From Acidobacteriota bacterium (lineage in GTDB: Bacteria > Acidobacteriota > Aminicenantia > Aminicenantales > Saccharicenantaceae): a stretch of DNA of 64,000 nucleotides. This document shows, piece by piece, positions 37,903-59,604 of the stretch. The notes below the pieces were generated by a model. That model was not told where the DNA came from and did not search any database. It was given only the letters and a program-made list of their open reading frames with translations. The stretch covers positions 286,082 to 350,081 of the forward strand of contig JAWSUF010000002.1 of NCBI GenBank assembly GCA_033549365.1, written 5' to 3'. The translations under genes and the position numbers were made by a program. Every line of letters begins with the position of its first letter. Positions within the stretch are counted from its first letter, which is position 1.

Positions 37903-37915
37903 TGTCGTTTACCTC

Positions 37916-44024: not shown

Positions 44025-44974
44025 AAATCCTGGCTGCCGCGGGAACCGAGGATGTGGCCATGGTCTACATCGCCGATATCGGAGACGGACGCAAAATCGA
44101 GCTGGTCGAATCCGTTCAGCCGCCGATTCCGCGCCTCAGGAAATGGGTGCTTCTGATTTCCACGCTGTGCGGCTGTCCGATCGGGTGTGCGATGTGCGAC
44201 GCCGGAGGCGGTTATCAGGGTCTTCTTTCCAAGGACGAGATTCTGGCCCAGATCGATTTTCTGGTCCGCCGCCGTTATCCCGACGGACATGTCCCGTGCG
44301 AGCAGTTCAAGATCCAATTCGCCCGCATGGGGGAACCGGCGCTCAATCCGGCCGTGCTCGATGTCTTGGACGAACTGCCGTCGCGTTTGGACGCTCCCGG
44401 TCTTATGCCGTCTCTATCGACGATCGCCCCGGCCGGTGCAGAAGACTTTTTCGAAGCCCTGATCGACATCAAGCGCCGCCGTTATGCCGGGGGGCGTTTC
44501 CAGTTCCAGTTTTCCATCCATTCCACGGACGCGGCTTGGCGGGGCAAACTGATTCCCGCGAAGACGTGGAGCTTCTCCGAGATGGCCGCCTACGGACGCC
44601 GCTTTTTCGCTCCGGGCGACCGGAAGATCGTTCTCAATTTCGCCCTGCCGCGGGAAGCTCCGGTCGATCCCGCAATCCTGAAGGACCACTTCGATCCGGA
44701 ACTTTTTCTAATCAAGATCACGCCCCTCAACCCGACCTATCGAGCTCGCGACAACCGTCTTGCGTCCGCAGTCGATCCGGATGCCCCCGAGGCCGATGCG
44801 GCGGCGGCCGACTTCCTGCGTGCGGCCGGCTACCGGGTGATTGTGAGCGTCGGGGAAGCCGAGGAAAACCAAATCGGCAGCAATTGCGGGCAATATCTAC
44901 GCCGCCACCTGGAAAGCCCGGCCCCCCTGGCCGACGGCTATTCTTACCCTCCGTTGCTTGGCTTCGATAAGTAA
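44021..44974 (+). CDS. Radical SAM protein with an RlmN/Cfr-like core
   Basis: CGCPIGCAMC (Cx3Cx2C) and the MGEPALNP motif, which resembles the RlmN GEP motif. It is shorter than RlmN. Confidence 0.5.
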   Translation: MKILAAAGTEDVAMVYIADIGDGRKIELVESVQPPIPRLRKWVLLISTLCGCPIGCAMCDAGGGYQGLLSKDEILAQIDFLVRRRYPDGHVPCEQFKIQFARMGEPALNPAVLDVLDELPSRLDAPGLMPSLSTIAPAGAEDFFEALIDIKRRRYAGGRFQFQFSIHSTDAAWRGKLIPAKTWSFSEMAAYGRRFFAPGDRKIVLNFALPREAPVDPAILKDHFDPELFLIKITPLNPTYRARDNRLASAVDPDAPEADAAAADFLRAAGYRVIVSVGEAEENQIGSNCGQYLRRHLESPAPLADGYSYPPLLGFDK

Positions 44975-44999
44975 CACATAAGCCACAACACAGCAAATT

Positions 45000-45662
45000 T
45001 CATCCGGATGACATTCGGTCCGCAAAGCCGCTCTCAAGGATCGGAAGAATATCCGAGGGAGAGTCGGCGATGGCGTCGGGTCGGCCCTGGCGCAGGAGGG
45101 AAAGGATGTCGTATCCCCAGGAGACCGCGATAACCCGGATGGGGACTTTTTTGCAGGCTGTGATATCTCTCAGCTCGTCGCCCACATAGACGGCCTCCGC
45201 CTTCTTGATGCGGTTGCGGATCAGAAAACTCCGGATGGCGGCATGTTTGCCGAGGAGATTTTTGGCCGTATGGATTTTTTTGAAGATGTCGGTCATGCCG
45301 TGATCGTTCAGGAAGGTCCGGATGTTCTGCTCCGAATTCGAGGAAAGGATATAAATGCGGAATCCTTTATCCGCCAGGGAGGTGAGCATGTCGTGGACTC
45401 CCGGATAGGGGACGGCCTGGTGCATGAACTCGCTGACAATGGCCCGTGTTTCGCGGGCCAGCCGGGGCAGAAGACTGAGAGGGACTCCGGCTTTATTCAA
45501 GCGTTCAAGGATCGGCAGCCTCCACAGCTCTTCCAGCTTCTCCTTGGGCCACTCCGGGAAATTGTATTTTGTCGCCAAACGCCGGTAGACTTGAAGAAGA
45601 GCTTGACGGGTGTCGGCCAGCGTGCCGTCGAAGTCGAAAAGGACGGTATTCAGTTCGTTCAT
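45000..45662 (-). CDS. HAD-superfamily hydrolase (phosphatase-like)
   Basis: Motif I VLFDFDGTLADT and motif IV YVGDELRDI. Confidence 0.75.
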   Translation of the reverse strand: MNELNTVLFDFDGTLADTRQALLQVYRRLATKYNFPEWPKEKLEELWRLPILERLNKAGVPLSLLPRLARETRAIVSEFMHQAVPYPGVHDMLTSLADKGFRIYILSSNSEQNIRTFLNDHGMTDIFKKIHTAKNLLGKHAAIRSFLIRNRIKKAEAVYVGDELRDITACKKVPIRVIAVSWGYDILSLLRQGRPDAIADSPSDILPILESGFADRMSSG

Positions 45663-45813
45663 CTGTTTGCGAATCTCCAAAATACATGGGACGAGAGCGC
45701 AAAGTCAATGTTTTCGGTGAAAATCGGGGAATTGACAGAGGCGGCCTTTTGTGCTGAGATACGTTTCGATGAATGTCGATATTTTTTCGGCAGTTAAACG
45801 CGAAGGAGGTTCT

Positions 45814-46815
45814 ATGAAAAAACTGGTATTTTTATTTGTTCTGGTTTCGCTGGTGGCCGCCCCGGTTTTAACCGCGGAGCAGGCGATCGTTCTTAAAGTC
45901 AAGGTTCAGGTCGCCAATGTTCGGGCCGAACCCGACATGAACAGCACCGTTGTCAAGAAAATCCCCGCCGACACGCTGCTCGAAGCCCGCCAGAGAATCG
46001 GCGACTGGTATGAGATCACCGTGACGGATGCCTCAGGAGCCGCCATATCGGGTTACATTCACCAGCAGGTTGTCGATGTTGTCGCCGGTGCGCCCAGGGA
46101 GCCGGAACCCGTCCGTGAAGAACCCCGGCGACCCGTCCGAGAGCCCGTCCGCGAAGAACCCCGTCAGCCCGTCGAAAGACGCATGGCGCCCGTCTCTTAT
46201 CGTTCCGACTACGGCATGGGCGGATTCAAGGCGATCGGCGGCCTGGCCATGGCCAGCCTCCGGTATCCCACCGAAGAAACCGCCGAATTCGATAAATACA
46301 AAAAATCCAAGATGGGCCTTGCCGGCGGAATCGGATTCGACAGCGGAGGACAGTTCGGTTTCGGCATGAACGTTCTTTACCTGCAGAAGGGCGTGAAATA
46401 TTCCGGCGAGGAAGACGGAGTCAAGTTCAGCTTCCCCATCAGCATTGACATGATCAGCCTTCCCGTCATGGCCAAGATCCGGTTTATGCCCGGCTCGACG
46501 CCGTATGCATTGGCCGGAGGCGAAGTGGCTTATGTTCTTTCTGCGAAGTCGAAGTATACGATCACGGATCTTGAGTCCGGGGAGAAGGAAACCGACACCG
46601 AGGACTTCAAGGACGATATCAACTCGATCGACTACGGAATCGTTTTCGGCCTGGGATATGAAATGAATACCGGGTCGTTTCCGATCTTCATCGAAGCCCG
46701 GTATCACCTCGGCTTGGCCAATCTCACGAAGGACAATCCGGATGAAGGCATCATCGCCGCGGAGAACTGGACCAAGACCAGCACAATCCTGATTGTGGGC
46801 GGCATCAGATTCTAA
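45814..46815 (+). CDS. Secreted protein: signal peptide, SH3-like domain, Pro/Glu/Arg-rich repeat linker, C-terminal outer-membrane beta-barrel domain
   Basis: Signal MKKLVFLFVLVSLVAAPVLTA. The SH3b-like stretch is ANVRAEPDMNSTVVKKIPADTLLEA...GDWYEI. The C-terminus has alternating hydrophobic beta-strands ending in aromatic-x-F. Confidence 0.6.
   Translation: MKKLVFLFVLVSLVAAPVLTAEQAIVLKVKVQVANVRAEPDMNSTVVKKIPADTLLEARQRIGDWYEITVTDASGAAISGYIHQQVVDVVAGAPREPEPVREEPRRPVREPVREEPRQPVERRMAPVSYRSDYGMGGFKAIGGLAMASLRYPTEETAEFDKYKKSKMGLAGGIGFDSGGQFGFGMNVLYLQKGVKYSGEEDGVKFSFPISIDMISLPVMAKIRFMPGSTPYALAGGEVAYVLSAKSKYTITDLESGEKETDTEDFKDDINSIDYGIVFGLGYEMNTGSFPIFIEARYHLGLANLTKDNPDEGIIAAENWTKTSTILIVGGIRF
46096..46180 (+). 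repeat. In-frame tandem repeat of about 36 nt inside the 45814-46815 CDS
   Basis: cccgtccgtgaagaaccccggc (46108-46129) and cccgtccgcgaagaaccccgtc (46144-46165), with a partial third unit. They encode PVREEPRRPVRE / PVREEPRQPVER. Confidence 0.45.
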
Positions 46816-46915
46816 GAAACCGGAATCGATAGGCGACAAGAAAGTCGTTCAAGCCGCGTTGCCTGCGGGAAAAGCGAGATTCGCGCGTCCTCCCGCCGAC
46901 AACGCGGCTTCTTTT

Positions 46916-47695
46916 TTATAAGATGAAGAAAAGACCGGCCGATAGGGCCGTTCCATGGGCGAAACCGACATCCAGAAGAAAGCCCAGACGTCTCCACGCC
47001 AGGGCTCGTCCGGAAATGCCGATGACGGGCGCCGTGATGAGGGAGGGGGTCCGGGGATCCCAAGCCCTGAGGGTGTCGAGTTCGAAACTTTCGCGGGCCT
47101 GAGCCCGGATCTCTCCCAGAGGTGTCCGCAAGACGGCCGATCCGTCGACATCCAAATTTCCCGTGAAGGGGAGGACGGCCGCCCCTCCATAAACGGAAAG
47201 GCGATATCTCTCGTTCCGGACGGCGTTCCAACGGGCGATCATGTTCACCATGACCGAACGGATGCGAACCGTGCCGTCTCCATGGGTTTCCAGCTCGCCC
47301 AGAGGAAATCCGAACAGGCCGATTTCGTGGCGGGAAGAAACCCGGAAGGGGATGCGGTAATCGGCCCAACCGATGCGGATACCCAGAGAAACCGCTCCCG
47401 GCTGGATGTGATGCCATGCGGCCAGGGAAAGATTTGTGCCCGAGGAATCCAGATCAGCCTGTACGGCATCGACGGAGACGATGCGATCCAGGTAGGCGGA
47501 GTCGATGAGTTGGACGAAAGCGCTCCGGATCGCGGCCTCGCTTTCCCTCTCGACGGGAGACCGGAATGGGGACAGAGTCCAGGGGCCCCAGGCGCATTCA
47601 AACTCCCATGTTTCGCGCTTGTCTTCGACCGGGCCGCCGAGCACCGCTCCGGAGACAAGGATCAGCAGGATTGTCCCGATGAATATTGCCTTCAT
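46916..47695 (-). CDS. Hypothetical secreted protein
   Basis: Signal peptide MKAIFIGTILLILVSGAVLG. No recognisable catalytic motif. Confidence 0.4.
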   Translation of the reverse strand: MKAIFIGTILLILVSGAVLGGPVEDKRETWEFECAWGPWTLSPFRSPVERESEAAIRSAFVQLIDSAYLDRIVSVDAVQADLDSSGTNLSLAAWHHIQPGAVSLGIRIGWADYRIPFRVSSRHEIGLFGFPLGELETHGDGTVRIRSVMVNMIARWNAVRNERYRLSVYGGAAVLPFTGNLDVDGSAVLRTPLGEIRAQARESFELDTLRAWDPRTPSLITAPVIGISGRALAWRRLGFLLDVGFAHGTALSAGLFFIL

Positions 47696-47756
47696 TTGAA
47701 GCCATCATATCAGAAGAAACGCCTCTTCCAAAATCCGGCTGTTTCCACAATCGAGG

Positions 47757-49250
47757 TTGGCGCCTCGTGTTGAATCGTATTGCCGCCTAAGGTATGATTT
47801 CCGGGAATTGAAAACGATCTCATCCCTATGTCCGGAATGCCGAAAAGTGGTCGAGGCCCGGGTTTATCTGGACGGCGGGCGGATTCTGCTCGACAAGACG
47901 TGCCCCCGCCACGGCCGTTTTCAGGATGTCTATTGGTCCGATTCCCGGCAGTTCGAAAGGTTCGAGTCGTTTCGCCATGAGGGCGAAGGCATCGAGAACC
48001 CGCGGACTCGGGAAGACCGCGGCTGTCCTCTCGACTGCGGCCTCTGTCCCGGCCATAAATCCACCACCCTTTTGGCGATCGTGGATGTGACCAACAGATG
48101 TAACCTCCGCTGCCCCGTCTGCTTCGCGAATTCCGGGGTCCGCGGTTATGTCTACGAACCGACCCGGGATCAAATCCGGGCCATGCTGGAAAACGTCCGC
48201 AACAACCGGCCCCTGCCGACCCCGGCGCTGCAGTTTTCCGGAGGAGAGCCGACTCTCAGGCCCGACCTGGCCGACCTCGTGGCCATGGCCCGGGACCTCG
48301 GTTTCCTGAATATCGAGGTCAACACCAACGGGATCCGGCTGGCCGAAAGCCTCGATTTATGCCGAAGTCTGAAGGATGCCGGTCTGCATACGGTCTATCT
48401 TCAGTTCGACTCGCCGGATGCCGAGGTTCATCGCCGCATACGGGGCCGGGACCTTGTCGAAATCAAAAGACAGGCGATCGAGAACTGCCGCCGGGCGGAG
48501 ATCCCCAGCGTTGTACTGGTCGTCACCCTGATCAAAGGCGTGAATGACGGGCATCTCGGAGAGATCATCCGCTATGCGGCCCAAAACCGCGACATCATCC
48601 GCTGCGTCAACATTCAACCGGTGGCCTTCACCGGACGGAGGCCTGACGAAGCGGACCGGACCGGGCGCATCACGATCCCGGATGTTCTGGCCCTTGTCGA
48701 GGAGCAGACACAGGGCGACATCCGGGCCTCGGATTTTTATCCGGTGCCAAGCGTCGTTCCCGTCGCCAAGGCCGTCGGCGCTCTGAAGGGCGAGGTTTTT
48801 CCCGAGTTCACCGCCCATCCCCACTGCGGCGCCGGCACTTATTTTTTTGTCGAAGACGGCCGGATCACGGCGATCAACCGGCACGTGAATGTGAATAAAT
48901 TTCTCCGTTCCCTGGGGCGCATATCACGAACGGCCGCGAAAGGATATCGGAGCTTGGCGGGCCTGATGCTCCTTTTCTCTCTCCGCCATGTCAAGATCGG
49001 CATGTTGAGGAGATTTCTTCTGCCCATTTTAAGAATGGGAACGTTTGAGGCCCTGGCCGATTTCCACTTCAAGGTCGTGCTGGTTTCCTGCATGCATTTC
49101 ATGGATGCCTGGAATTTCGACGGGGAGCGTGTGCGGCGCTGCGTCATTCATTATGCCGTCCCGGACGGCCGGATCATCCCCTTCTGCGCCTACAACAATC
49201 TCGGCTACCGGGATGAGGTGGAGCATGCCTTCAAAACCGTCCGTGATTGA
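47757..49250 (+). CDS. Radical SAM enzyme with an N-terminal rubredoxin/Zn-ribbon-like Cys4 module and an extra CxxxCxxC cluster; candidate tetraether/membrane-spanning-lipid synthase (Tes/GDGT-MAS/Mss-like)
   Basis: CPEC...CPRHG, then CPLDCGLCPGH, then the canonical rSAM motif IVDVTNRCNLRCPVCFANSG and FSGGEPTL. About 480-497 aa. There is no in-frame ATG near the 5' end, so the start is probably TTG at 47757 or 47808. Confidence 0.55.
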   Translation: MAPRVESYCRLRYDFRELKTISSLCPECRKVVEARVYLDGGRILLDKTCPRHGRFQDVYWSDSRQFERFESFRHEGEGIENPRTREDRGCPLDCGLCPGHKSTTLLAIVDVTNRCNLRCPVCFANSGVRGYVYEPTRDQIRAMLENVRNNRPLPTPALQFSGGEPTLRPDLADLVAMARDLGFLNIEVNTNGIRLAESLDLCRSLKDAGLHTVYLQFDSPDAEVHRRIRGRDLVEIKRQAIENCRRAEIPSVVLVVTLIKGVNDGHLGEIIRYAAQNRDIIRCVNIQPVAFTGRRPDEADRTGRITIPDVLALVEEQTQGDIRASDFYPVPSVVPVAKAVGALKGEVFPEFTAHPHCGAGTYFFVEDGRITAINRHVNVNKFLRSLGRISRTAAKGYRSLAGLMLLFSLRHVKIGMLRRFLLPILRMGTFEALADFHFKVVLVSCMHFMDAWNFDGERVRRCVIHYAVPDGRIIPFCAYNNLGYRDEVEHAFKTVRD

Positions 49251-49986
49251 ACGCCTGAGGGACCGCCGGGAGGTCCTGCATTTCACGTTGATCGATCCCG
49301 ACAGCCAAACCCCCAAGCGGCTGGCCGAAGTCGTTCGGATGTGTTGCCGGTTCGGCACGGATGCCTTCATGGTCGGCGGGTCCGGTCCTTTCGGACGGCG
49401 CCGGCTGGAAACCGCCCTGAAGACGATCCGCAAACATACGGACCGGCCCGTCATTCTGTTTCCGAACTCCGCCGAATCCGTATCCCGGCACGCGGACGAA
49501 ATATTTTTCATGTCGCTTCTCAACTCCCGCGGATCTCGGTTTCTGATCGGCGAGCAAGTTCGGGCTGCCGCCGCTGTAAAAAGGGCCGGCCTCCGCCCGA
49601 TTTCCATGGCCTATATCGTTGTCGGCACGAGCCGGAAGCCGACGACCGTGGAAAAGAAGGTCAGACTGGAAGCCATCGGAAGTTGCGATGTTCGAAAAGC
49701 CAGGGACTATGCGCTCGCGGCCGAATATCTCGGAATGAGCTGTGTCTATCTTGAGGCGGGATCGGGCGCGGACAAGCCCGTGCCGCCGCGGATGATCCGG
49801 GCCGTGAGGGGGGAAATCTCGGTGCCTCTCATTGTTGGTGGAGGCATCCGCAGCCCGCGCCGGGCCCTCCAAACGGCGGAAGCCGGCGCCGACGCCGTCG
49901 TCACCGGCACGATCGTCGAGCGGGATCCGGCCCGTCTCGAAGCCATCATCCGGACCATCAAAGCGTTCCGGCCCGGCCGTCGATAA
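49225..49986 (+). CDS. Geranylgeranylglyceryl phosphate synthase family protein (GGGPS/PcrB)
   Basis: LHFTLIDPD, FMVGGS, YLEAGSGA and PLIVGGGIRS motifs of the (beta/alpha)8 GGGPS/PcrB family. Start is ATG 49225 or GTG 49243, overlapping the end of the upstream rSAM gene. Confidence 0.8.
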   Translation: MPSKPSVIERLRDRREVLHFTLIDPDSQTPKRLAEVVRMCCRFGTDAFMVGGSGPFGRRRLETALKTIRKHTDRPVILFPNSAESVSRHADEIFFMSLLNSRGSRFLIGEQVRAAAAVKRAGLRPISMAYIVVGTSRKPTTVEKKVRLEAIGSCDVRKARDYALAAEYLGMSCVYLEAGSGADKPVPPRMIRAVRGEISVPLIVGGGIRSPRRALQTAEAGADAVVTGTIVERDPARLEAIIRTIKAFRPGRR

Positions 49987-51072
49987 ATGGCGAAGGGAAC
50001 GACGATATCCGGCTTTTTATCTCTCATCCGGCTTCCCAACGGTTTGATCGCCGTTTTATCGACGGTGATGGCCGGCGTCGTGACCGCCCGGTCCTTCGAT
50101 ATCCGGCCCGCGGTTTTTCTCGGGGCCGGGATCGTCTGGCTCATCCTTTCGGGAGGAAACGCCCTCAATGATTTTTTTGATCGCCATATCGACAAGGTGA
50201 ACAGGCCGCGGAGGCCGATTCCTTCGGGTCGGATCACCGGCCGGCAGGCCGTCGTTTTCTCCTGGATTCTGCTTTCGCTGGGTCTGGGGCTGAGCCTGGC
50301 TCTTGGCCTCAAAGTCGCGGCCTTCGCCGCCGCGAACATCCTGATTCTTGTCATCTATGCCCGTTGGTCCAAGTCCCTGGGTCTGCTCGCCAATCTCGCG
50401 GTCGGCTGGCTGACGGCATCGGTCTTTCTCTTCGCTGCGATCATTCAGGGACATCCGGATGTCAATATCCTGGCCTTGAGCCTGAGCGCGTTTTTCATTA
50501 TGACATCGAGAGAAATCCTCAAGGACATCGAGGATATGGAAGGTGACAGGGAAGGAGGCGCGGCGGCGACCCTGCCGATCCGCGTCGGTCCGGGCCGGGC
50601 GCGAACGGCGGCCGTTCTGGCGGCTCTTCCCGCGGTTCCCCTGATTGTTCTTCCGTCCTTGAATCTGGGGATGAACGTTCTTTTCCCGGTTTTCGCCGTT
50701 CCCGCCGCCGCAACCGTCGTTTATTCCTTCTTTCCGAATCCGCGTGCGGCCCAGAGGTCGATCAAAATCGCCGTGATTCTGGTTCTCCTGGCCTATGTCT
50801 TCGGTGTCTTGTCGACGGACAAGAGAAGCCGAGGCTCAGGACATGAGGTATTTGACGGCGTAACGGGCGAGATCGGTGGCGTTTTTCGTCAGGATTTTCG
50901 TTATCCCGGCAAAAGATCCCCGGGAAAGATCGTCCAGTGTCTCTCCCGAGATCAGCCGGGCGAGGCGATTCAGGTCCGTGTCGGAGAGACGTTCGTGGAA
51001 TGTGTTGAGCTTGAGCATCCGCGCCGTTTTCCGGCCGTGTTGCGCTTTCCAGAGCGTTTCATAACGGCTTAA
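49987..51072 (+). CDS. UbiA-family prenyltransferase; digeranylgeranylglyceryl phosphate synthase (DGGGPS)-like
   Basis: NALNDFFDRHIDKVNRPRRPIPSGRI (the first Asp-rich UbiA motif), a second motif at REILKDIEDMEGD, and 8-9 TM helices. The last 75 aa or so (past about 50830) overlap the convergent GGR gene and look like stop-less read-through. Confidence 0.75.
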   Translation: MAKGTTISGFLSLIRLPNGLIAVLSTVMAGVVTARSFDIRPAVFLGAGIVWLILSGGNALNDFFDRHIDKVNRPRRPIPSGRITGRQAVVFSWILLSLGLGLSLALGLKVAAFAAANILILVIYARWSKSLGLLANLAVGWLTASVFLFAAIIQGHPDVNILALSLSAFFIMTSREILKDIEDMEGDREGGAAATLPIRVGPGRARTAAVLAALPAVPLIVLPSLNLGMNVLFPVFAVPAAATVVYSFFPNPRAAQRSIKIAVILVLLAYVFGVLSTDKRSRGSGHEVFDGVTGEIGGVFRQDFRYPGKRSPGKIVQCLSRDQPGEAIQVRVGETFVECVELEHPRRFPAVLRFPERFITA

Positions 51073-52245
51073 GCTTTCGCGCGTGACGGAGTTCTTTCGG
51101 ACGGCATCGGCGGCGATTTCGGCCGCCATCCGGCCCGACATCATGGCCAGTTTCATCCCGCCTCCGGTCGCCGGGTTGACGAGGTGACCGGCGTCTCCGA
51201 CAATCAGCAGGCCGTCTCCCGCAAGAGCCGGGATCGATCCGTCCGTCGGGACTCCGCCGCAGTTGATCTCGACGGCCGAGGCCCGCCCGAAAATATCCGG
51301 ACGATCGCGGATGAACAGGTCCAGGAAATCTTTTGCGCTTTTCCCCTCGGATTTGTCCGTCTTGATGCCGAGGCCGACGTTGGCCATGCTCGGTCCCTTG
51401 GGGAAGATCCAGGCGTATCCGCCCGGGGCAATGCCGTTTCCGAAATAGAGGTGGATCGCGGTTTCGTCGATATGGCGAAGGCCGGCCATCTCATATTGGA
51501 TTCCGCTGATGTAGGCTTCCTGCCTGTTTCTGCTGTCCAGTCCGGCCCATTTGGCGATCATGGAGTCCGGCCCGTCCGCCGCGATCACGATTCGGGCCGT
51601 GATGAATCCCTTTTTGCCGCGGCTTCGGAATTCCACGCCCGCAACGGTTCCATGATCCCGGATAACGCCGACAGCCTCCGTTTGAATCAGATAGCGCGCT
51701 CCCGCCAGAACGGCATTCCGGGCCAGGTGTTTTTCAAAAACCTTTCTTTCGAGGATATAGCCCCAATCCTCCTGCGATCGGGATTTCCACCGCACGGCCG
51801 TTCCGTCCGGCGCATGGAGAACGGCGCTTTGGATGCGGGCGGCCACCCAGCCGGGATCGACCTCCATGTCCAGATCTTTGAAGGTTTGGGAGCTGATGCC
51901 CTCGGCGCATCGTTTCGGCGCGCCGATTTCCCGCCGCTTTTCGACGACGATCGTCCGGATCCCCGACCGGGCCAGACGTTCGGCGCAGACACTGCCGGCG
52001 GGTCCGGCGCCCACGACGACGACATCCGTATCGATCGTCTCCGACGAAGTCGAACACGTCTTGTCCGAGGTTCGGGAAACGGCCCGGACGGGGCAGAAAG
52101 CAACGCATAACCCGCACGCTGTGCAGGCGGCCTCATCGAGATGGAGTCCGCCGTGCCCCAGGATCAGGGCTTCCGACGGACAGATTCCGACACATCCTCC
52201 GCAGATACAGCAGATCTCCCGATCGATACGGATGTTTCCGTTCAT
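50836..52245 (-). CDS. Geranylgeranyl reductase family FAD enzyme with an N-terminal 2x[4Fe-4S] ferredoxin domain
   Basis: True start MNGNIRIDREICCICGGCVGICP...CTACGLCVAFCP (GAGGG RBS upstream), then the FAD motif VVVVGAGPAGSVCAERLARSG. The GGR-type C-terminus reads GDAGHLVNPATGGGM. Confidence 0.8.
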   Translation of the reverse strand: MNGNIRIDREICCICGGCVGICPSEALILGHGGLHLDEAACTACGLCVAFCPVRAVSRTSDKTCSTSSETIDTDVVVVGAGPAGSVCAERLARSGIRTIVVEKRREIGAPKRCAEGISSQTFKDLDMEVDPGWVAARIQSAVLHAPDGTAVRWKSRSQEDWGYILERKVFEKHLARNAVLAGARYLIQTEAVGVIRDHGTVAGVEFRSRGKKGFITARIVIAADGPDSMIAKWAGLDSRNRQEAYISGIQYEMAGLRHIDETAIHLYFGNGIAPGGYAWIFPKGPSMANVGLGIKTDKSEGKSAKDFLDLFIRDRPDIFGRASAVEINCGGVPTDGSIPALAGDGLLIVGDAGHLVNPATGGGMKLAMMSGRMAAEIAADAVRKNSVTRESLSRYETLWKAQHGRKTARMLKLNTFHERLSDTDLNRLARLISGETLDDLSRGSFAGITKILTKNATDLARYAVKYLMS

Positions 52246-52310
52246 GTCGCCCTCGGTTTTTTTGCGGCGTTTCGGCGCTCCGCCGATTATAGACGGCCCG
52301 GCCTTGCCGT

Positions 52311-53390
52311 TCAACCCGGTTTGGGATCGGAGAGCCGGGAGATGTCCCGGCCGGGGTTTCCGGAAACAATCAGGGTGGTGCCCACTGTCATGACCATGAC
52401 GACAAGATAGAATTGAAATAAAACCGCATAGGGAAGGAAGCGGAATTGCCGGAAATGTCTCATGGGGTTGAGCATGATCATGATGTCGGCGAGCAGACGA
52501 ATCATCACGAATAATGGAAGGGATGTTGTGAATACCGGGTAAATGGAGACGCCCAGATAAAGCGCCATAAGAAACGGGACCAGAATTCTCCATCCTCGCA
52601 TCGGATAAAAGAAGCCGGAGGTCCAGCGCTTTTTTTGCCGGATATTGTCCTTCAGGCTTCTCATGGGCCGGGTGAAAACGGCTGTGTCGGCATGGAATAT
52701 CAGGCGAGCTCCCCCACATCGATGCTTGTGACAGGCCCGGACAAGCCGATAATCCAACAGGGCACCCGAGCTCATTTTTTGATATCCGCCGGCCTGCACA
52801 TAAGCCTTTTTACTGAATGCCATGTTTCCCCCGAACAAGCTGCATGTCCGAAAGGTTCGCGCCAGGGATTTCCCGATGGAAAACATGTAGAGGAATTCCA
52901 GGGCTTGCATATCGGCCGCGATCCGGGTGTTTTCGCGGATCAAATAGGCCCCGCCCACAATGGCATCTCCGCCGCGGAGCCGGGAGGACAGTTCGGATAT
53001 CCACCTTGACCCGGCGACACAGTCGGCGTCGATCTGCATGATGATCTCTCCCCGGGCTTTTTCGATACCGAACGCCAGAGCCTTTTTTCTTCCCGGAGAT
53101 CCTCCTCTCAGCCGGAAAGAGCGAAAATTCTCCAGCGAATCCGAATAGACTCGGATGATCTCCGGAGTCTTGTCTTTGGAATGATCGTCCACGATAACGA
53201 CCTCGTATTGATCCCGGGGCCAGTCCTGGTTCTTGAGCGATTCGAGGCACTCCCGGATGTTGTTCTCCTCGTTCCGCGCGGTCAGGACAACAGAGACAAA
53301 CCGGCGCGGTTCGTCGGCGGTCGGAGTGTCATCCGTCTTGGCCGTGAGGAAAAACGCAGCGAGGGACACGGCCAGATAAAGCATGTACAC
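52311..53390 (-). CDS. Family-2 glycosyltransferase, membrane-anchored
   Basis: N-terminal TM, then VSVVLTARNEE...VVIVDDHSKD (GT-A DxD region), then C-terminal TM helices. Confidence 0.7.
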   Translation of the reverse strand: MYMLYLAVSLAAFFLTAKTDDTPTADEPRRFVSVVLTARNEENNIRECLESLKNQDWPRDQYEVVIVDDHSKDKTPEIIRVYSDSLENFRSFRLRGGSPGRKKALAFGIEKARGEIIMQIDADCVAGSRWISELSSRLRGGDAIVGGAYLIRENTRIAADMQALEFLYMFSIGKSLARTFRTCSLFGGNMAFSKKAYVQAGGYQKMSSGALLDYRLVRACHKHRCGGARLIFHADTAVFTRPMRSLKDNIRQKKRWTSGFFYPMRGWRILVPFLMALYLGVSIYPVFTTSLPLFVMIRLLADIMIMLNPMRHFRQFRFLPYAVLFQFYLVVMVMTVGTTLIVSGNPGRDISRLSDPKPG

Positions 53391-53446
53391 AATAAGAATG
53401 ATTGTGAACAGGTTGACACCCTTAACGCATTCTTGTAGGTTCTCTC

Positions 53447-54613
53447 ATGGCCAAACAGTATCCTGAGAACGGTCGAAATTGTCAAATGTCCTTGAAGATT
53501 CTTGTTGTCGGGGCGGGATTGAGCGGCGCCGCAGTCGCCAGGCTGCTTCGGGATCGGGGACATCGCATCCTTGTCGTCGAAAAGGAGAGCCATGTCGGCG
53601 GTCTGTGCATCACGAGAATCAGCCCCAACGGACTGCAATACGAACCCTTCGGAGCGAGGACGTTTCACTCCCGGAAACCGGATGTCATCGCTTTTGTCCG
53701 AAGATTCGCCGAATTCAACGGCTATGTTCACCGCAAGGGGATCATAATCCATGGGAAACTGTTCCCGTATCCGATCAGCCGGGAATCCCTGTCGGCCCTC
53801 GATTCCCGGGAGAGGATCTGCCGTGAACTTGAAAATCTGCCGGACGAGGTTGACGCGACGAATTTCGAAACGGCCGCGCTTTCGCTTTTCGGAGAGACGC
53901 TTTATCGATTGTTCATTCGGAATTATACAACCCGGATGTGGGGGGTGGATCCGGTCCATTTGTCCGCCGACATGGCCTTAAGGAGACTTGAGCTCCGGGA
54001 TGGCCCCGCCGGGGACTTGTTTCGCGGCGAATGGCAGGGCTTGCCGTCCCGCGGCTATTCGGCGTTTCTGGAAAGCATGCTCGAAAGCATTCCCGTGAAG
54101 CTCCATACGCCGTTTGACACCGGCGATTCGTATGATGTTGTGGTGTCATCGGCTCCGATCGACGAGATGTTGGCTTTCCGTTTCGGACGGCTGGCCTATC
54201 GGAGTCTTCGGTTCGATTATCAGGCCGACGCGCCCTGGGAACATGACGCTTTTGGGACCATCAATCTTCCCCAGGATGGGACATACATCAGGAAATGCAA
54301 CTTCAAGATCCTCCACCGCCGGCAATCCCGCCGCAATTGGATTCAATACCAGGAACCCGTGGCTGCGGAAAACGGCCGAATTCCCATGTATCCGGTCGCT
54401 ACGACGGAGAACGAGCAGGCTTACATCAGGTGTTTAAGGGCGATCTGCGCGACCCGGATTTGCCCGGTGGGAAGAATGGGGTTTTCGAAATATTTGAACA
54501 TGGACCAAGCCGTTGAAGTCGCTTTCAGAATGTTGCCGGTCATTGAGCATTATCCCCGGCTCAGCCCGGCGGTCCGGTTCGAAAAAATTGCGGCCATCCG
54601 GGCGAAATATTGA
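53447..54613 (+). CDS. glf: UDP-galactopyranose mutase
   Basis: KILVVGAGLSGAAVA FAD motif. It has the overall UGM length and conserved Trp/Tyr-rich substrate-loop region. An alternative start MSLKIL lies at 53486. Confidence 0.75.
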   Translation: MAKQYPENGRNCQMSLKILVVGAGLSGAAVARLLRDRGHRILVVEKESHVGGLCITRISPNGLQYEPFGARTFHSRKPDVIAFVRRFAEFNGYVHRKGIIIHGKLFPYPISRESLSALDSRERICRELENLPDEVDATNFETAALSLFGETLYRLFIRNYTTRMWGVDPVHLSADMALRRLELRDGPAGDLFRGEWQGLPSRGYSAFLESMLESIPVKLHTPFDTGDSYDVVVSSAPIDEMLAFRFGRLAYRSLRFDYQADAPWEHDAFGTINLPQDGTYIRKCNFKILHRRQSRRNWIQYQEPVAAENGRIPMYPVATTENEQAYIRCLRAICATRICPVGRMGFSKYLNMDQAVEVAFRMLPVIEHYPRLSPAVRFEKIAAIRAKY

Positions 54614-54646
54614 TCGGATGCGGTTCCCCTGATAACGCGTGCGCCC

Positions 54647-56224
54647 TCACCGGCAGGCTTCGGGATCGCAGGGGAATTTCGTCCGAAGCATGAAATCGGC
54701 GAAGCGGTTGGAAATGCCGGCCGTGCGCGCGCCCGTCAGCCGCCTCCACATTCCGATGCCTTTGGCTCCCACTCCGACGATTTTCAGGATGGGCGCCGGC
54801 ACCTCGCTTCCCCAGATCGAGACGTTCAATTCCCAACAGCGCTCGATGACGGCCAGTTGCGTGTCCGTCAGGCCGTCCAGGCTGATCCGCTTCGATCGGC
54901 CCAGGGGCGTCCGGTCCAGGGGGATGAAAAGGATCGGGGTGTAAAAGAGAACGGCGTTCTGCCGGTGGAGCCGCTCGATGAGCCCGGCCGTCCGAAGGGC
55001 GTCGTTTTCGTCCTCACCCGGCCACCCCACGATGATCGTGGCCAGGGGATAGATCCGGTTGGCGTTGAATGCGGCGACACCCTCACAGACGATGTCTGGC
55101 CAGCCGTCCGCGTCCAGGGGAAGGGCTTTTCCCGGCATGTGCCGGCTCATGATCCGCGGGCTTCCGGATTCGATGCCGATTTCAACCGTGGCGTAAGGTT
55201 TGCCTCTCAGGGTCCGCGACGATTTTTCGACGAAGATGGGGGCGAGTTCGGGCAGCAACTTGGGATCGACGAGGACGGGTGCGATCGAGGCGTGAGACAG
55301 GTGGATATGCCGGAGGCCCGGCCGGGCCGCCACGGCCTCGAAAAGGCCGGCGAGAGCTTTCCGGTCCGGCTCGAAGTTGCGTTGCGAACGGTAGAGAAAC
55401 ATGTCGTCGGTGACGATGAAGGCCGCATCGCCGCCGCCCCGGATGTTCGTATCGATCTCGCTCAGGACGGTTTCGAGGGCCACGGAGTGCTTTTTCTGCA
55501 GGTTCGGCGAACAGAAGGCACAGCCTCTTCCGCAACCCCGGGTGATTTCCACGTCGCCGAATATCGCCGGGGCGCGAATCGCGGGAGCTTCGCCGCTGCG
55601 TCCGGACGGCTTGAGGCGGATGACCCGGGGCGCCGCTCCTCTGCGGATGGATTCGAATACGGCCGGAATGTCCGACTCCGACCGTCCCGACACCAGATGA
55701 TCGATGCCCAGTTCCGCCTGTTTTCCGGAATGATCGATTTGCCAGACGGCTTCCCCCCCGACGACGATTTTGAAGGTTTTCCCGCGTTTGAGCCGTCGGG
55801 CTTTCCGGAGCAGTCGTTTGAATTCATAGGCATTGACGGACTCTCCCCCGAATCCCACCAGGGAGTTGTAGGTCGTGCTGACGTAGGCGAGCCCCAGGGG
55901 GTCCATGGTCGAAATGCCGAGAATTTCGGTCCCGTCGCCGACGCAAGATTCCAGATGGTCGGGATGGCAGACGACAACGCCGCCGTCGTCTTCGGCCTCG
56001 GACAAGGCCGCCTCGATTTTTCTCAGGCCGTAAGGCGCGAAGCGGGCGCGGCCGTCGGCATGGGCGACCGGAGCAAAAAACTTTTCCAGGTATAATCCCG
56101 CAGGAATCCGGGGGAACGTGCATTTGAAGGCTTCGAAGGCATCGGCGGGCAATCCGATTTCGGGGCCGAATTGGCTCATTTCGGCGCGCGAGGCCGTCAA
56201 GACGATCGAATAACCGCGGCCCAT
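54647..56224 (-). CDS. B12-binding-domain radical SAM protein (class B rSAM)
   Basis: N-terminal Rossmann-like cobalamin domain (ILGISTMDPLGLAYV) followed by the rSAM motif TRGCGRGCAFCS. The start is uncertain (56224 or 56281). Confidence 0.6.
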   Translation of the reverse strand: MGRGYSIVLTASRAEMSQFGPEIGLPADAFEAFKCTFPRIPAGLYLEKFFAPVAHADGRARFAPYGLRKIEAALSEAEDDGGVVVCHPDHLESCVGDGTEILGISTMDPLGLAYVSTTYNSLVGFGGESVNAYEFKRLLRKARRLKRGKTFKIVVGGEAVWQIDHSGKQAELGIDHLVSGRSESDIPAVFESIRRGAAPRVIRLKPSGRSGEAPAIRAPAIFGDVEITRGCGRGCAFCSPNLQKKHSVALETVLSEIDTNIRGGGDAAFIVTDDMFLYRSQRNFEPDRKALAGLFEAVAARPGLRHIHLSHASIAPVLVDPKLLPELAPIFVEKSSRTLRGKPYATVEIGIESGSPRIMSRHMPGKALPLDADGWPDIVCEGVAAFNANRIYPLATIIVGWPGEDENDALRTAGLIERLHRQNAVLFYTPILFIPLDRTPLGRSKRISLDGLTDTQLAVIERCWELNVSIWGSEVPAPILKIVGVGAKGIGMWRRLTGARTAGISNRFADFMLRTKFPCDPEACR

Positions 56225-56292
56225 GACGACGACTATAGTTTGAGAGAACCCGGGTGTCAATCTCGCCGCGGCCTGCCCCATAAGGAGTTTCT

Positions 56293-57111
56293 ATGGTATA
56301 TTCTTTCCTGAGAGAGATGCGACCGGACATGAAACACAACGGATCTTTGAGGCGCACCATCGGAACCGCGGTCTGCCTCTGCATCCTCTGTTCCGCGGCC
56401 GCCGCCTTCGAGCCGGGGAAACGAGCCGAACACAATCCCAGGGAGATTCTGGAGCGCGTCGACAAGATGATGCACGGCGATTCCTCCTCCGGCATCCTGG
56501 TCATGACGGTTCAGGCCGAGCATTGGACTCGGACGCTCGAGGTGCAATTTTCGACGAAAGGCGATGACCGGTTCCTGGTGCGGATTCTCTCTCCCAAAAA
56601 GGAGAAGGGCACGGCAACCCTGAGATCCGGGTCGGACATCTGGAACTACCTTCCCAAAACCAACCGCGTCATCAAGGTGCCGTCCGTATCGCTGGCCTCC
56701 TCCTGGATGGGAAGCCACTTCACGTACGACGACATGTTGAAGGACAGGCGGCTGGCCGATGATTTCCTGTCGGCCGTCACGAATGAAGAAGCTACGGAAT
56801 CCGGACTTCTGGTGGAGATCACCGGCACTCCGAAACCGGATGCGCCCGTCGTTTGGGGCTCGATCCGGGTCGTGGTGAACACGGATCTGGACCTGCCGCG
56901 CTGGATTCGATACTACGACGAAAACGGCGGGTTGGTGCGGACGCTGGAATTTTCCGACATCGGACCTCTGGGCGGCCGGCGGCTTCCCCGGCGCCAACGT
57001 ATGACTCCCGCGGAGAAACCCGGGGAGTTCACGGACGTCGTCTATCGCGATCTTGTCTTCAATCCCGACCTGGACGACGCATTCTTCTCGCTGCGCGCGC
57101 TGCAAAGATAA
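56293..57111 (+). CDS. LolA-like outer-membrane lipoprotein carrier/sorting protein
   Basis: Signal peptide, then about 230 aa of beta-rich sequence. It sits directly upstream of two FtsX-type permeases and an ABC ATPase (a LolCDE-like arrangement). Confidence 0.5.
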   Translation: MVYSFLREMRPDMKHNGSLRRTIGTAVCLCILCSAAAAFEPGKRAEHNPREILERVDKMMHGDSSSGILVMTVQAEHWTRTLEVQFSTKGDDRFLVRILSPKKEKGTATLRSGSDIWNYLPKTNRVIKVPSVSLASSWMGSHFTYDDMLKDRRLADDFLSAVTNEEATESGLLVEITGTPKPDAPVVWGSIRVVVNTDLDLPRWIRYYDENGGLVRTLEFSDIGPLGGRRLPRRQRMTPAEKPGEFTDVVYRDLVFNPDLDDAFFSLRALQR

Positions 57112-57123
57112 CGGGAATCATCG

Positions 57124-58344
57124 GTGTCTATTCTTGCCTATGCCTGGCGCAACCTGGGGCGAAACAGGAAGCGCACCATGATCACGCTCACGTCTCTGGC
57201 CTTCGCCACGGCGGTTCTCATCGTCAGTTTCGCTCTTCTGGACGGGCTCATCGGCGATATCGAAAACAACATCACTTCGATATCCGCAGGCGAGGTTCAG
57301 ATCCATGCTCCGGGCTATTTCGATGAGCGATCTCTCTACCGGACGCTCGATGATCCGGCGGGAATCCTCCGGATCGTCGAGCAATCGGCCGCCAAAGCGG
57401 CCCCGCGAAGCTACGGCGACGGCCTTCTGGCCCGCGACGTCCGGTCCTCCGGCTGCCGGTTTTGGGGCGTCGATCCGGCCGCTGAGAGAAAGGCATTCTC
57501 ATTGCCGGAAAGGATCCTGGCCGGCGCGTTCCTGTCCGATCAGCCGGAAAGAGAGATCGTTCTGGGAGAAAACCTGGCCCACTCCCTGAGGGCCGGCGTC
57601 GGCGATGAGCTGGATGCGGTCGTGCAGGCGGCGGACGGTTCGCTAGGAAACGAGGTCTTCATCCTTCGCGGGATTCTTCAAACCTCCGGCGCTGAAATCG
57701 ATCTGTCGGCCGCGATCATTCATGAGCGGGACTTCGCCGATCTTTTCGTCTCCGGCGGTGCCGTTCACGAAATTGCGGTCAATTCCGGCGGGCGCATTTC
57801 AGCGGATCGATTGAGAAATCGGATTCGCGCCGCCGCCCCCGGTGTCGATGTGAAGACCTGGCGGGAAATCCTCCCCCTGTTTGCGGGAACGGTGCAGAAC
57901 GCCCGGAAAGCCGTCTGGGTCTTCAGCATCTGCTTTTTTCTTGTTGCGGGTCTGGGCATCACGAACACGATGCTCATGGCGACTTACGAACGCACCCGGG
58001 AGTTCGGGATCATGAAAGCTCTGGGGACGGCGCCGCGGCGGATCATCGGCATGATTCTTGCTGAATCCGCGCTTCTCTGCCTGTGCGCCACGATCGCCGG
58101 TGCGGCGTTGGGGGCGGCCGCCTCACTCTATCTTGCGGATACAGGACTGGATCTCGGGGGATTTCCCATAAAAATGAAAATGACGACCTTCATCCACAGC
58201 GCGGTCTGGCGGGCCGCTCTCGGCTGGAAAAACATCATGTTGCCGGTTCTGTGCATCTGGGCGGTCTGCATTCCGGCCGCACTTTACCCGGCTTTGACCG
58301 CGGCGCGCCTGGATCCCGTTCGGACTCTGCATGGCCGGTATTGA
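57124..58344 (+). CDS. FtsX-like ABC permease (MacB/LolC-type) with a large periplasmic domain
   Basis: GTG start. N-terminal TM, a periplasmic domain of about 200 aa, three C-terminal TM helices and the FtsX motif region ATYERTREFGIMKALG. Confidence 0.75.
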   Translation: MSILAYAWRNLGRNRKRTMITLTSLAFATAVLIVSFALLDGLIGDIENNITSISAGEVQIHAPGYFDERSLYRTLDDPAGILRIVEQSAAKAAPRSYGDGLLARDVRSSGCRFWGVDPAAERKAFSLPERILAGAFLSDQPEREIVLGENLAHSLRAGVGDELDAVVQAADGSLGNEVFILRGILQTSGAEIDLSAAIIHERDFADLFVSGGAVHEIAVNSGGRISADRLRNRIRAAAPGVDVKTWREILPLFAGTVQNARKAVWVFSICFFLVAGLGITNTMLMATYERTREFGIMKALGTAPRRIIGMILAESALLCLCATIAGAALGAAASLYLADTGLDLGGFPIKMKMTTFIHSAVWRAALGWKNIMLPVLCIWAVCIPAALYPALTAARLDPVRTLHGRY

Positions 58345-58365
58345 TCCGGGGCGAAGGAGTATCCG

Positions 58366-59604
58366 ATGATCGGCGGAATGGCCTGGAGAAGTCTCCGGCG
58401 GAACACGAAGAGAACGGCGATCACCGTCGCCGCCGTCGCGCTGGGTCTTCAATTCGCCATCGTCTATGCGACCTTCGAGCAGGGGCTGAACTATCGGCTG
58501 GAAAACGAATTGGTCGGCTTCCTGGCCGGCCATATCACCCTGGAACATCCCGACTACCGGATGGACCCGGATGTCGCCTTTTATCTCGAGGATGCCGAGC
58601 GACTCGGGCGTTCCCTTGAAACCGCGCCGGGAGTCGATGCCGTCAAGCCTCTCGTCATTGCGAGAGGTCTTGTGAAATCCTCCCAGGGCAGCGGCTATGT
58701 CGAGATTCGAGGGGTCGATCCCTCCGTCGAAAGCCGCACGTCGCCTCTGGTTCCCCTTATCGTTTCCGGCCGATATCTCCGGGACCGGAAGGCTCCCGAT
58801 ATCGTCCTGGGCGAAAGCCTGGCCCGGCGGCTGCGGGTTGCCGAAGGAAACCGGGTCGTTCTGGCGACGTCCGGCGCCGACGGTGTTTTGATCGAGGCGC
58901 TCTGCCGGGTCTCGGGCGTTTTTCAAACCGGAATCAGCGAGTTCGATTCGTTTCTGGTCCAGGTGCCTCTTGAGTTTCTGCGGGATGTCCTGCAGCTCCC
59001 CCCGGAAAGTGCGACTCAGATCGGAGTCCTGGCTTCAAGTCCCGCAAGTCAGAAACGTCTGATGAAACGGATTTCCTCCTGGGTCGACGAAACATCCGTT
59101 GCGGTTTACCCCTGGCAGAGCCTGCTTCCCCAATTGGATGCCCTGACCCGTCTGATCAAGGCGTCGGTCTGGATCCTGGAGGGTGTTCTTCTGATCCTGG
59201 TCCTTTTTATGGTCTGGAATACGCTTCTCATGTCCATTCTCGAACGCCGGAAAGAATTCGCCGTGCAACGGGCCCTGGGAACACCGACCGGGTTCGTGAA
59301 AAGGCAGCTTTTTCTTGAAACAGCATGGATCGCCGCCGCCGGCACTTTTTTGGGTTTACTTTGGGGCGGCGGGTTGTCCCTGATCCTTCAGTTCCGGGGC
59401 GTTGATTTCGAGAGATTCCTCGGAGAGCAGAAACCGGTGATGGGGATGGGATTGCCGACCGTGCTTTACACGCGGGTGACGGCGCCGGCGCTGATCATTC
59501 CGGCCGCGGCGATCCTGGCCGGGGTTCTGGGCCTCGGGCTGCTGGTCATGCGGCGGGCGACGCAGGCGCCCCCGGCCGAGTCCCTGCGGGAGGGAAAACC
59601 ATGA
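58366..59604 (+). CDS. FtsX-like ABC permease (second, LolE-like)
   Basis: Same architecture as the first permease, including SILERRKEFAVQRALG. Confidence 0.75.
   Translation: MIGGMAWRSLRRNTKRTAITVAAVALGLQFAIVYATFEQGLNYRLENELVGFLAGHITLEHPDYRMDPDVAFYLEDAERLGRSLETAPGVDAVKPLVIARGLVKSSQGSGYVEIRGVDPSVESRTSPLVPLIVSGRYLRDRKAPDIVLGESLARRLRVAEGNRVVLATSGADGVLIEALCRVSGVFQTGISEFDSFLVQVPLEFLRDVLQLPPESATQIGVLASSPASQKRLMKRISSWVDETSVAVYPWQSLLPQLDALTRLIKASVWILEGVLLILVLFMVWNTLLMSILERRKEFAVQRALGTPTGFVKRQLFLETAWIAAAGTFLGLLWGGGLSLILQFRGVDFERFLGEQKPVMGMGLPTVLYTRVTAPALIIPAAAILAGVLGLGLLVMRRATQAPPAESLREGKP

Follow-up and report, generated by a model that had tools for sequence, protein, structure and literature searches.

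Can a bacterium carry the genes for membrane-spanning tetraether lipids of the archaeal kind, and what would it make with them? The question is raised by a gene cluster at 47.7-56.3 kb of a 64-kb stretch of an Acidobacteriota contig (JAWSUF010000002.1; the whole stretch is called the window below). In this cluster a radical SAM (S-adenosylmethionine) gene orthologous to the archaeal GDGT-MAS, and here called Tes, lies next to genes for a geranylgeranylglyceryl phosphate synthase (GGGPS), a UbiA-family prenyltransferase resembling digeranylgeranylglyceryl phosphate synthase (DGGGPS), and a geranylgeranyl reductase fused to a ferredoxin (Fd-GGR). A first-pass annotation had read the cluster as an archaeal-type isoprenoid ether-lipid locus in a bacterium. 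The seven open reading frames (ORFs) that it listed were all present at the coordinates it gave, and Pfam and NCBIfam confirmed their families; its observation is confirmed and its interpretation supported. We think it probable that the cluster is a long-resident horizontal acquisition of archaeal origin, and that the cell builds isoprenoid ether lipids and membrane-spanning tetraethers. All of the evidence is sequence inference from metagenomic assemblies. Window ORFs were assigned to families with Pfam and NCBIfam profile scans scored against the curated cut-offs, and PDB sequences were scored against Tes, GGGPS, UbiA, GGR, and the UDP-galactopyranose mutase (UGM)-family protein of the cluster.

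Identity of the core lipid genes

Profile and alignment alike identify the radical SAM gene as a genuine Tes, for which phytanyl-coupling activity is predicted. Its product scored 619.3 bits against the equivalog model "tetraether lipid synthase Tes" (NF045702, cut-off 450), contained the Pfam domains Radical_SAM and Zn_ribbon_HMPTM, and aligned over residues 16-493 with residues 21-505 of 7TOL, the GDGT-MAS of M. jannaschii (511 bits, E = 1.9e-152). The rubredoxin-like domain, the N-terminal cluster domain, the radical SAM core and the C-terminal cluster domain were collinear with those of 7TOL. A review of GDGT-MAS defines these domains and their metal sites as a rubredoxin-like Fe bound by three Cys and a His, a [4Fe-4S]N cluster bound by three Cys and a His, the radical SAM motif CX3CX2C, and a [4Fe-4S]C cluster bound by three Cys and a Met (PMC13459092). 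The first two correspond to C25/C28/C49/H52 and C90-x3-C94-x2-C97-x2-H100 in the window protein, which bears out the rubredoxin-like N-terminus and the extra CxxxCxxC cluster of the first-pass annotation. By its profile score and the match to 7TOL, the protein is a Tes and not a SPASM peptide maturase. The radical SAM motif, C115-x3-C119-x2-C122, follows these two sites in the chain, and C357, C445, M446, C462, and C477, identical to 7TOL in the alignment, are candidate ligands of the C-terminal cluster. Conserved motifs of the protein were CPEC/CPRH, CPLDCGLCPGH, CNLRCPVC, HCG, SCMHFMD, RCVIHY, and PFCAYN.

Two other names for this gene were considered and rejected. The TrsS model reached 402 bits, below its cut-off of 490, and covered only the N-terminal two-thirds of the protein, and the label "7,8-dihydro-6-hydroxymethylpterin dimethyltransferase", given by JGI to the orthologue in a second assembly, is outweighed by the Tes equivalog and the full-length match to 7TOL. 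The JGI start codon for that orthologue cuts off the CPEC motif, and PGAP names the gene "radical SAM protein"; public annotation hides the Tes gene. The start called by PGAP, 47808, is the likely one.

The GGGPS belongs to the PcrB Pfam family, and its scores place it with the archaeal group-II type, for which specificity for geranylgeranyl diphosphate (GGPP) and sn-glycerol-1-phosphate (G1P) is predicted. It passed the cut-offs of TIGR01769 (GGGP, 214.8 bits, cut-off 161.6) and NF003198 (268.5 bits, cut-off 247), and the group-I models TIGR04146 and TIGR04147 gave 63 and 30 bits. Among structures, the archaeal group-II enzymes 6NKE, 4MM1, and 6JO3 scored 173-188 bits, the Flavobacterium enzyme 4JEJ 116 bits, and PcrB structures about 44 bits; the heptaprenyl PcrB model NF003197 yielded 38 bits against a cut-off of 260, placing the protein outside the PcrB clade. 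Among the ten best 50%-cluster representatives that were looked up, the sole named one was from a Thermoplasmata archaeon. Two outcomes that the first-pass annotation had named as speaking against its reading were checked, a GGGPS within the heptaprenyl-specific PcrB group and a radical SAM gene among unrelated families; neither was seen.

The prenyltransferase matched UbiA in Pfam with 132 bits, and its best model was the DGGGPS equivalog NF009521 (209.8 bits); since this is below the equivalog cut-off, we file it as DGGGPS-like. Support for that role comes from its best structural match, the DGGGPS of M. jannaschii (6M31, 123 bits), from the Asp-rich motifs NDFFDRHID (61) and DIEDMEGD (180), and from its translational coupling to GGGPS; eight hydrophobic segments were present. 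The Tes and GGGPS frames share 26 nt, and UbiA starts at the codon right after the GGGPS stop, so that Tes, GGGPS, and UbiA form one operon. UbiA homologues all end at ...AFLAGSF, and the window ORF runs on for 86 codons (50827-51072) antisense to the 3' end of GGR, as does its counterpart in the second assembly. This tail is lineage-specific, and its ratio of non-synonymous to synonymous substitution rates (dN/dS) between the two assemblies was 0.56 versus 0.03 for the core; it is probably the outcome of a stop-codon loss or an unconstrained extension and not a functional domain.

The Fd-GGR combined GGR_cat (81.6 bits), FAD_binding_3, and Fer4 domains, scored 236 bits against TIGR02032 (cut-off 158.8), and contained the motifs GAGPAG, CAEG, and YAWIFP. 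Its ferredoxin part has two CxxCxxCxxxC motifs, CCICGGCVGIC and CTACGLCVAFC, and its best structure was the digeranylgeranylglycerophospholipid reductase of T. acidophilum (3OZ2, 240 bits). It fell short of the lineage-specific equivalogs for that reductase (254 against 780).

Host, recurrence and ancestry of the cluster

The bacterial host proposed at first is borne out by the surrounding genes. From residue 18 onward, Tes was identical to MDW7759849.1, encoded on a 553-kb contig of an Acidobacteriota metagenome-assembled genome (MAG), and the beta subunit of succinyl-CoA ligase (SucC) in the window was 78-80% identical to Candidatus Aminicenantes proteins. The genes that flank the cluster code for an SH3/outer membrane protein (OMP) beta-barrel, a LolA-like protein, a pair of MacB/FtsX permeases and an ABC ATPase; a HAMP histidine kinase and an anaerobic energy metabolism of bacterial style are encoded in the remainder of the window. 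The G+C content was 0.595 in the cluster and 0.598 in the rest of the window. The same cluster junctions occur in the second assembly (JGI Ga0643526_0000883, locus L001), which is 96.4% identical to the window at the nucleotide level. Judged by these features the host is a Gram-negative bacterium of the Acidobacteriota/Aminicenantes type, and the contig is not chimeric.

The core of Tes-GGGPS-UbiA and Fd-GGR was found in 15 independent bacterial contigs, and a recurrence of this extent argues against a chance juxtaposition of genes. The related loci (L001-L004, L063-L065, L143/144, L148/149, and L150/151) preserve the order of the adjoining Tes, GGGPS, and UbiA genes and have Fd-GGR alongside, and the ferredoxin-reductase fusion is common to all of them; Tes in the loci other than L001 was 57-65% identical. 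These clusters often include a polyprenyl synthase (GGPP-type) and sometimes IspH, DUF2070, or further radical SAM genes. Their flanks are likewise bacterial (TonB-dependent receptor, ribosomal protein S21, AcrB/MFP efflux, porins, OMP beta-barrels), and the names attached to them at NCBI are Candidatus Aminicenantes bacterium, Acidobacteriota bacterium, "bacterium", and, for one fragment, a Deltaproteobacteria MAG. As an archaeal comparison we took about 130 Tes loci from Bathyarchaeia, methanogens, and Nitrososphaeria with 10-kb flanks, searched with tblastn and with hidden Markov models (HMMs) built from the bacterial proteins; none had a GGGPS within 10 kb of Tes. The operon recurs in bacteria and is missing from the sampled archaea, and it was therefore put together in bacteria from archaeal parts rather than copied as a block from any archaeon sampled.

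The affinity of Tes is archaeal. The window protein was 57-60% identical to Tes of Bathyarchaeia and Methanomethylicota, and a neighbour-joining (NJ) tree (100 bootstraps) placed the operon-type Tes in a clade with these two groups at 95% bootstrap, with Tes homologues from Geopsychrobacteraceae and Bacillota (32-34% identity) outside it. A scan of GTDB species representatives returned no bacterial genome with a close Tes, only Bathyarchaeia, other archaea, and distant bacterial homologues (29-34%); the lineage therefore lies outside those representatives or was missed by the peptide patterns. There is a thin hint of a mosaic origin, in that GGR (through 3OZ2), GGGPS, and the radical SAM protein rSAM544 discussed below all point to Thermoplasma/Thermoplasmata.

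From host to host the G+C content of Tes follows that of its flanks, between 0.44 and 0.68, which speaks for long residence. Between the window and L001, Tes differed by 20.5 synonymous and 5.5 non-synonymous changes (dN/dS 0.085) and the UbiA core by 11 and 1; both genes are under purifying selection and maintained. In the same comparison (43134-54196), synonymous divergence was 0.01-0.07 across the 259-aa secreted protein gene hyp259, Tes, GGGPS, UbiA, GGR, and the glycosyltransferase gene (GT2) and 0.13-0.22 in flanking genes (TrxR-like, rSAM317, HAD, OMP, UGM), and the low values of the lipid core suggest recent recombination or a sweep between close relatives.

A proposed pathway and its rivals

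The route that follows is deduced from gene content, as are its substrates, the sequence of its reactions, its head group, and the arrival of the products in the membrane. GGGPS would join a geranylgeranyl chain from GGPP to glycerol phosphate, giving geranylgeranylglyceryl phosphate, and the translationally coupled UbiA would attach the second chain to give digeranylgeranylglyceryl phosphate. Host enzymes would add a head group or, in the window lineage, GT2 might do so with UDP-galactofuranose (UDP-Galf), leaving a hexose that is possibly galactofuranose. The self-sufficient Fd-GGR would then saturate the chains with electrons received through its own input domain, and Tes, using SAM-derived radicals and its C-terminal [4Fe-4S] cluster, would couple two phytanyl termini into glycerol trialkyl glycerol tetraether (GTGT)/GDGT-0 (GDGT, glycerol dialkyl glycerol tetraether), macrocyclic archaeol, or both. 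A further modification of the isoprenoid chains may be due to rSAM544. GGPP, glycerol phosphate, and CDP-activation would have to be supplied by genes outside the window.

Several points weigh against this reading. The locus was first described as complete, which overstates it: none of the ORFs in the 64 kb encodes a G1P dehydrogenase (G1PDH), a GGPP synthase (GGPPS), or a CDP-archaeol synthase (CarS). UbiA misses both curated DGGGPS cut-offs (209.8 against 296 for NF009521 and 136.7 against 353 for NF009522). Tes could yield mainly macrocyclic archaeol and not tetraethers, and GDGT synthesis engineered into E. coli was toxic (PMC12042123). Finally, the bacterial Tes group was monophyletic at only 33% NJ bootstrap, a value compatible with one or several transfers and with different donors. 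The missing genes need not block the pathway, because E. coli substitutes suffice and the clusters of relatives hold a polyprenyl synthase: CdsA and PgsA of E. coli, with an unknown source of G1P, supported the synthesis of archaetidylglycerol from a bacterial GGGPS and DGGGPS (PMC7852524). In anaerobic E. coli, GGPPS, GGGPS, DGGGPS, GGR with ferredoxin, and Tes, together with G1PDH and CarS, led to GDGT (PMC12042123).

The toxicity seen in E. coli (PMC12042123) also lends weight to a more modest product, in which the cluster makes diethers and no bulk membrane-spanning lipids. Tes would then form macrocyclic archaeol for the most part, or else some minor specialised lipid, maybe exported to the outer membrane through LolA and MacB. 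GDGT-MAS is known to yield macrocyclic archaeol and GTGT as well (PMC13459092, PMC8941075), and a transporter of the MacB/FtsX-ABC or RND type accompanies each of the bacterial clusters, joined in the window by the LolA-like gene. Nevertheless, the closest relatives of the window Tes are from Bathyarchaeia, the LolA-like gene is not conserved elsewhere, and the adjacency of transporters may be coincidence; we judge this version unlikely.

It is less likely still that the substrates of Tes are bacterial fatty acyl or alkyl chains with iso branches, joined as in branched GDGTs (brGDGTs), with GGGPS and UbiA serving another purpose. Acidobacteria are suspected producers of such lipids and the role has been suggested for bacterial homologues of Tes (PMC8941075, PMC11868695), but the window Tes shares 57-60% identity with Tes of Bathyarchaeia and the bacterial homologues of the GTDB scan only 29-34%, its frame overlaps GGGPS, and the operon-type Tes of bacteria is always accompanied by GGGPS, UbiA, and GGR. 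Little credence can be given to a third use of the cluster, in which the cell would scavenge the lipids of archaea that occur alongside it and take up, remodel, or break them down. For bacterial GGGPS and DGGGPS without G1PDH, a reverse or catabolic function has been floated (PMC6431249), and neither G1PDH nor GGPPS is present in the window; against this, the C-C coupling by Tes and the saturation by GGR are biosynthetic steps, and a polyprenyl synthase and IspH lie inside the clusters of relatives. An assembly or binning artefact that fused an archaeal fragment to bacterial DNA, conceivable insofar as all the sequences are metagenomic and the closest named Tes relatives archaeal, is hardly credible when the bacterial junctions repeat across 15 contigs, one of them 553 kb long, that stem from numerous samples and assemblers, the G+C content is equal on both sides, and the operon arrangement is never seen in archaeal loci.

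With the biosynthesis of isoprenoid diethers and tetraethers thus kept as the preferred reading, the cluster can be compared with known systems. It resembles archaeal Tes/GDGT-MAS (MJ0619/7TOL and MA_1486; Zeng 2022, Lloyd 2022) in domains, metal motifs, and a score above the equivalog cut-off; in contrast to these, the window Tes, whose activity is predicted, is bacterial and stands in an operon with GGGPS and a DGGGPS-like UbiA. Bacterial GGGPS and DGGGPS have been described before from FCB phyla, notably Cloacimonadota (PMC7852524, PMC6431249), in which no Tes was found (PMC11868695). What the window has in common with Candidatus Cloacimonetes and further FCB bacteria (Villanueva et al. 2021, PMC7852524) is the co-localised GGGPS and DGGGPS, an archaeal-like GGR, and the lack of G1PDH and CarS nearby, whereas the window host belongs to Acidobacteriota/Aminicenantes, its cluster includes Tes and with it a potential for tetraethers, and its GGR is fused to ferredoxin; the window GGGPS also scores closer to archaeal than to Flavobacterium GGGPS. 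With the heptaprenylglyceryl phosphate synthase PcrB of Bacillus it shares the PcrB/GGGPS fold family, but its PcrB-specific scores are low.

The "bacterial Tes homologues" linked to brGDGTs in Acidobacteria, Planctomycetota, and Chloroflexota (PMC8941075, PMC11868695, PMC11214058) are similar in superfamily and in their bacterial hosts. They have at most about 42% identity to archaeal Tes, and their role in brGDGT synthesis is hypothetical (PMC8941075), an assignment that persists in 2026 preprints; they cluster with gms/elb/ger-type genes, unlike the window Tes with its isoprenoid ether-lipid genes. A further parallel in gene content is the synthetic GDGT pathway of E. coli (Chen et al. 2025, PMC12042123), which uses essentially the same set of GGGPS, DGGGPS, GGR with ferredoxin, and Tes, the GGPPS being found in the clusters of relatives. 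The Fd-GGR fusion merges the separate ferredoxin and GGR of M. acetivorans used in that reconstitution (PMC12042123). Unlike that engineered pathway, which was toxic and was read as a sign that GDGTs arose in archaea alone, the window cluster occurs in nature, is conserved, and shows purifying selection in Tes and UbiA. In the literature, which we covered incompletely and with most subscription journals outside, there was no bacterial Tes co-located with GGGPS and DGGGPS and no report of GDGT genes in Aminicenantes.

Isoprenoid GDGTs (isoGDGTs) and archaeol serve as archaeal biomass and palaeoclimate markers, and GDGT synthesis has been argued to be an archaeal innovation deleterious to bacteria, with natural organisms of hybrid membrane said to be unknown (PMC12042123). 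The chances appear even that Aminicenantes/Acidobacteriota of anoxic sediments naturally make isoGDGTs and archaeol beside bacterial lipids. If they do, these compounds would not be exclusively archaeal biomarkers, and GDGT membranes would be compatible with a diderm bacterial cell. These would be the first natural bacteria with a pathway to membrane-spanning "archaeal" lipids, its archaeal genes assembled into a bacterial operon, and the exceptions to the "lipid divide" would widen from the diethers of Cloacimonadota to membrane-spanning tetraethers. A conserved Tes-GGGPS-DGGGPS-GGR cluster in widespread sediment bacteria, compact at about 4.5 kb (47808-52245), makes archaeal-only positions directly testable.

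Gene layout, accessory genes and neighbours

The coordinates of the cluster genes and of the promoter-like hexamers are collected in Table 1. A promoter consensus scan returned 8 sites where 2.8 +/- 1.8 were expected, all of them consensus matches only. The predicted hexamers end about 10 nt ahead of the PGAP start of Tes (47808) and about 8 nt ahead of M20 of rSAM544 (56224), a spacing that suggests very short or no leaders and that the longer ORF starts at 47757 and 56281 are unused.

Table 1. Genes and promoter-like sites of the cluster, in window coordinates.
Feature	Position	Strand	Remarks
hyp259, secreted beta-rich 259-aa protein, function unassigned	46916..47695	-	divergent from Tes
Alternative upstream TTG start of Tes	47757	+	gives 497 aa
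Promoter-like hexamers TTGAAT-17-TATGAT	47770..47798	+	upstream of Tes-GGGPS-UbiA
Tes (GDGT-MAS orthologue)	47808..49250	+	480 aa from PGAP start
Group-II GGGPS	49225..49986	+	253 aa
DGGGPS-like UbiA prenyltransferase	49987..51072	+	homologous core ends near 50826
Fd-GGR, N-terminal 2x[4Fe-4S] ferredoxin fused to geranylgeranyl reductase	50836..52245	-	
Promoter-like hexamers	52286-52314		before GGR
Membrane GT2, candidate lipid head-group glycosyltransferase	52311..53390	-	upstream of GGR, same strand
UGM-family flavoenzyme, candidate UDP-galactofuranose supplier	53447..54613	+	
Promoter-like hexamers TTGACA-17-GATACT	53457..53485	-	upstream of GT2-GGR unit
rSAM544, radical SAM protein with Rossmann-like N-domain	54647..56281	-	544 aa; probable start M20 = 56224
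Promoter-like hexamers	56232-56260	-	before rSAM544

The head-group genes noted in the first-pass annotation are present as GT2 and UGM, but they are confined to the window lineage (GT2 to the window and L001) and lie outside the conserved core. GT2 scored 100.6 bits for Glycos_transf_2, with weak matches to Glyco_transf_21 and to lipid glycosyltransferases of the HpnI/HpnB type, and has three C-terminal hydrophobic segments. The UGM protein contained a GLF domain (103 bits, cut-off 26) and matched bacterial UGM structures over their full length (3HDQ, 168 bits; 1I8T, 133 bits); at 189.2 bits it was below the TIGR00031 equivalog cut-off of 303.75 and is taken as a family member only. In L003 a GT28-type transferase stands in place of GT2 and UGM, and head-group chemistry thus appears to differ between lineages.

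For rSAM544, profile scores were low, with 35.6 bits for Radical_SAM and 56 bits for the B12/radical SAM model TIGR04013 (cut-off 251), and there was no match to a B12-binding Pfam domain. An AlphaFold2 model (predicted local distance difference test, pLDDT, of 85) showed a radical SAM barrel between a Rossmann-like N-domain and a helical C-terminus, and its top Foldseek matches were the B12 enzymes MgmA, TsrM, and TokK and the non-B12 enzymes MiaB and RimO, all at a TM-score of about 0.5. B12 and non-B12 enzymes share this fold, and the "B12-binding" label of the first-pass annotation is kept as putative. Across 35 homologues the only invariant cysteines were C250/C254/C257 (CX3CX2C). In Gms, a C-terminal extension of the SPASM type supplies the cysteines of two auxiliary [4Fe-4S] clusters (PMC13459092); these cysteines are absent from rSAM544, and we rejected that assignment. 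The protein is a candidate modifier of isoprenoid chains, and a Grs-like or methylase-like role is plausible. Orthologues with 53-61% identity lie inside the clusters of L002, L143/144, and L150, and rSAM544 is therefore counted as part of the system. Its next relatives are Thermoplasmata proteins (45-50% identity). A homologue recorded under "[Eubacterium] cellulosolvens" was considered as a sign of a role in bacterial fatty acids and dismissed on its archaeal gene context. That homologue (45% identical, CDLUMC010000157.1, L147) is surrounded by LSM, IF-2B, AMP-phosphorylase-like, DUF3198, and EF-2 genes, and the record appears to be either wrongly labelled or contaminated by an archaeon of Thermoplasmata type.

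A DUF2070 membrane protein adjoins the rSAM544 orthologue in three related loci (L143, 8052-10004; L144, 1652-3331; L150, 17860-19578) and has no counterpart in the window. The DUF2070 family is mostly archaeal, and from its position the protein may be a functional partner of rSAM544. The hyp259 gene encodes a signal peptide and has no Pfam match; L003, L148, and L149 have homologues (32-34% identity) at most about 10 kb from the cluster, which is weak evidence that it may belong to the cluster. A 317-aa CxxxCxxC protein encoded at 44021-44974 (+), conserved in L001, gave weak RlmN/Cfr-like NCBIfam matches and none in Pfam. Kinship with the small radical SAM proteins encoded in the clusters of L003 and L150 was considered, but the protein proved unrelated to them.

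A MacB/FtsX-ABC or RND efflux set stands beside every bacterial version of the cluster, at 56293-60314 (+) in the window, 3342-6550 in L002, 3935-7147 in L003, and 17055-18616 in L143, and as RND genes in L148 and L150; a gene for a LolA-like periplasmic carrier is found near the window cluster and is not kept beside the others. This adjacency may be coincidence, or a route by which hydrophobic products are moved across the envelope.

Elsewhere in the window, an island of low G+C content (32000-36300; 0.52-0.55 versus about 0.60) carries genes for a D12-class N6-adenine methyltransferase (34291-35424) and a DpnII-like endonuclease (35425-36273), which are likely a type II restriction-modification system of recent acquisition; next to them lie two small ORFs that have no Pfam match. 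Redox genes occupy 1-29500 and 36300-42300 of the window. They encode two NuoF-like fusions (a 1218-aa one includes a GltD-like domain), a [FeFe]-hydrogenase-like protein, [NiFe]-hydrogenase subunits, HdrA/MvhD/HdrB-C-like proteins, a 2-oxoacid:ferredoxin oxidoreductase, a class I fumarase, succinyl-CoA ligase, and acetate kinase, a predicted gene set that indicates a fermentative or electron-bifurcating lifestyle.

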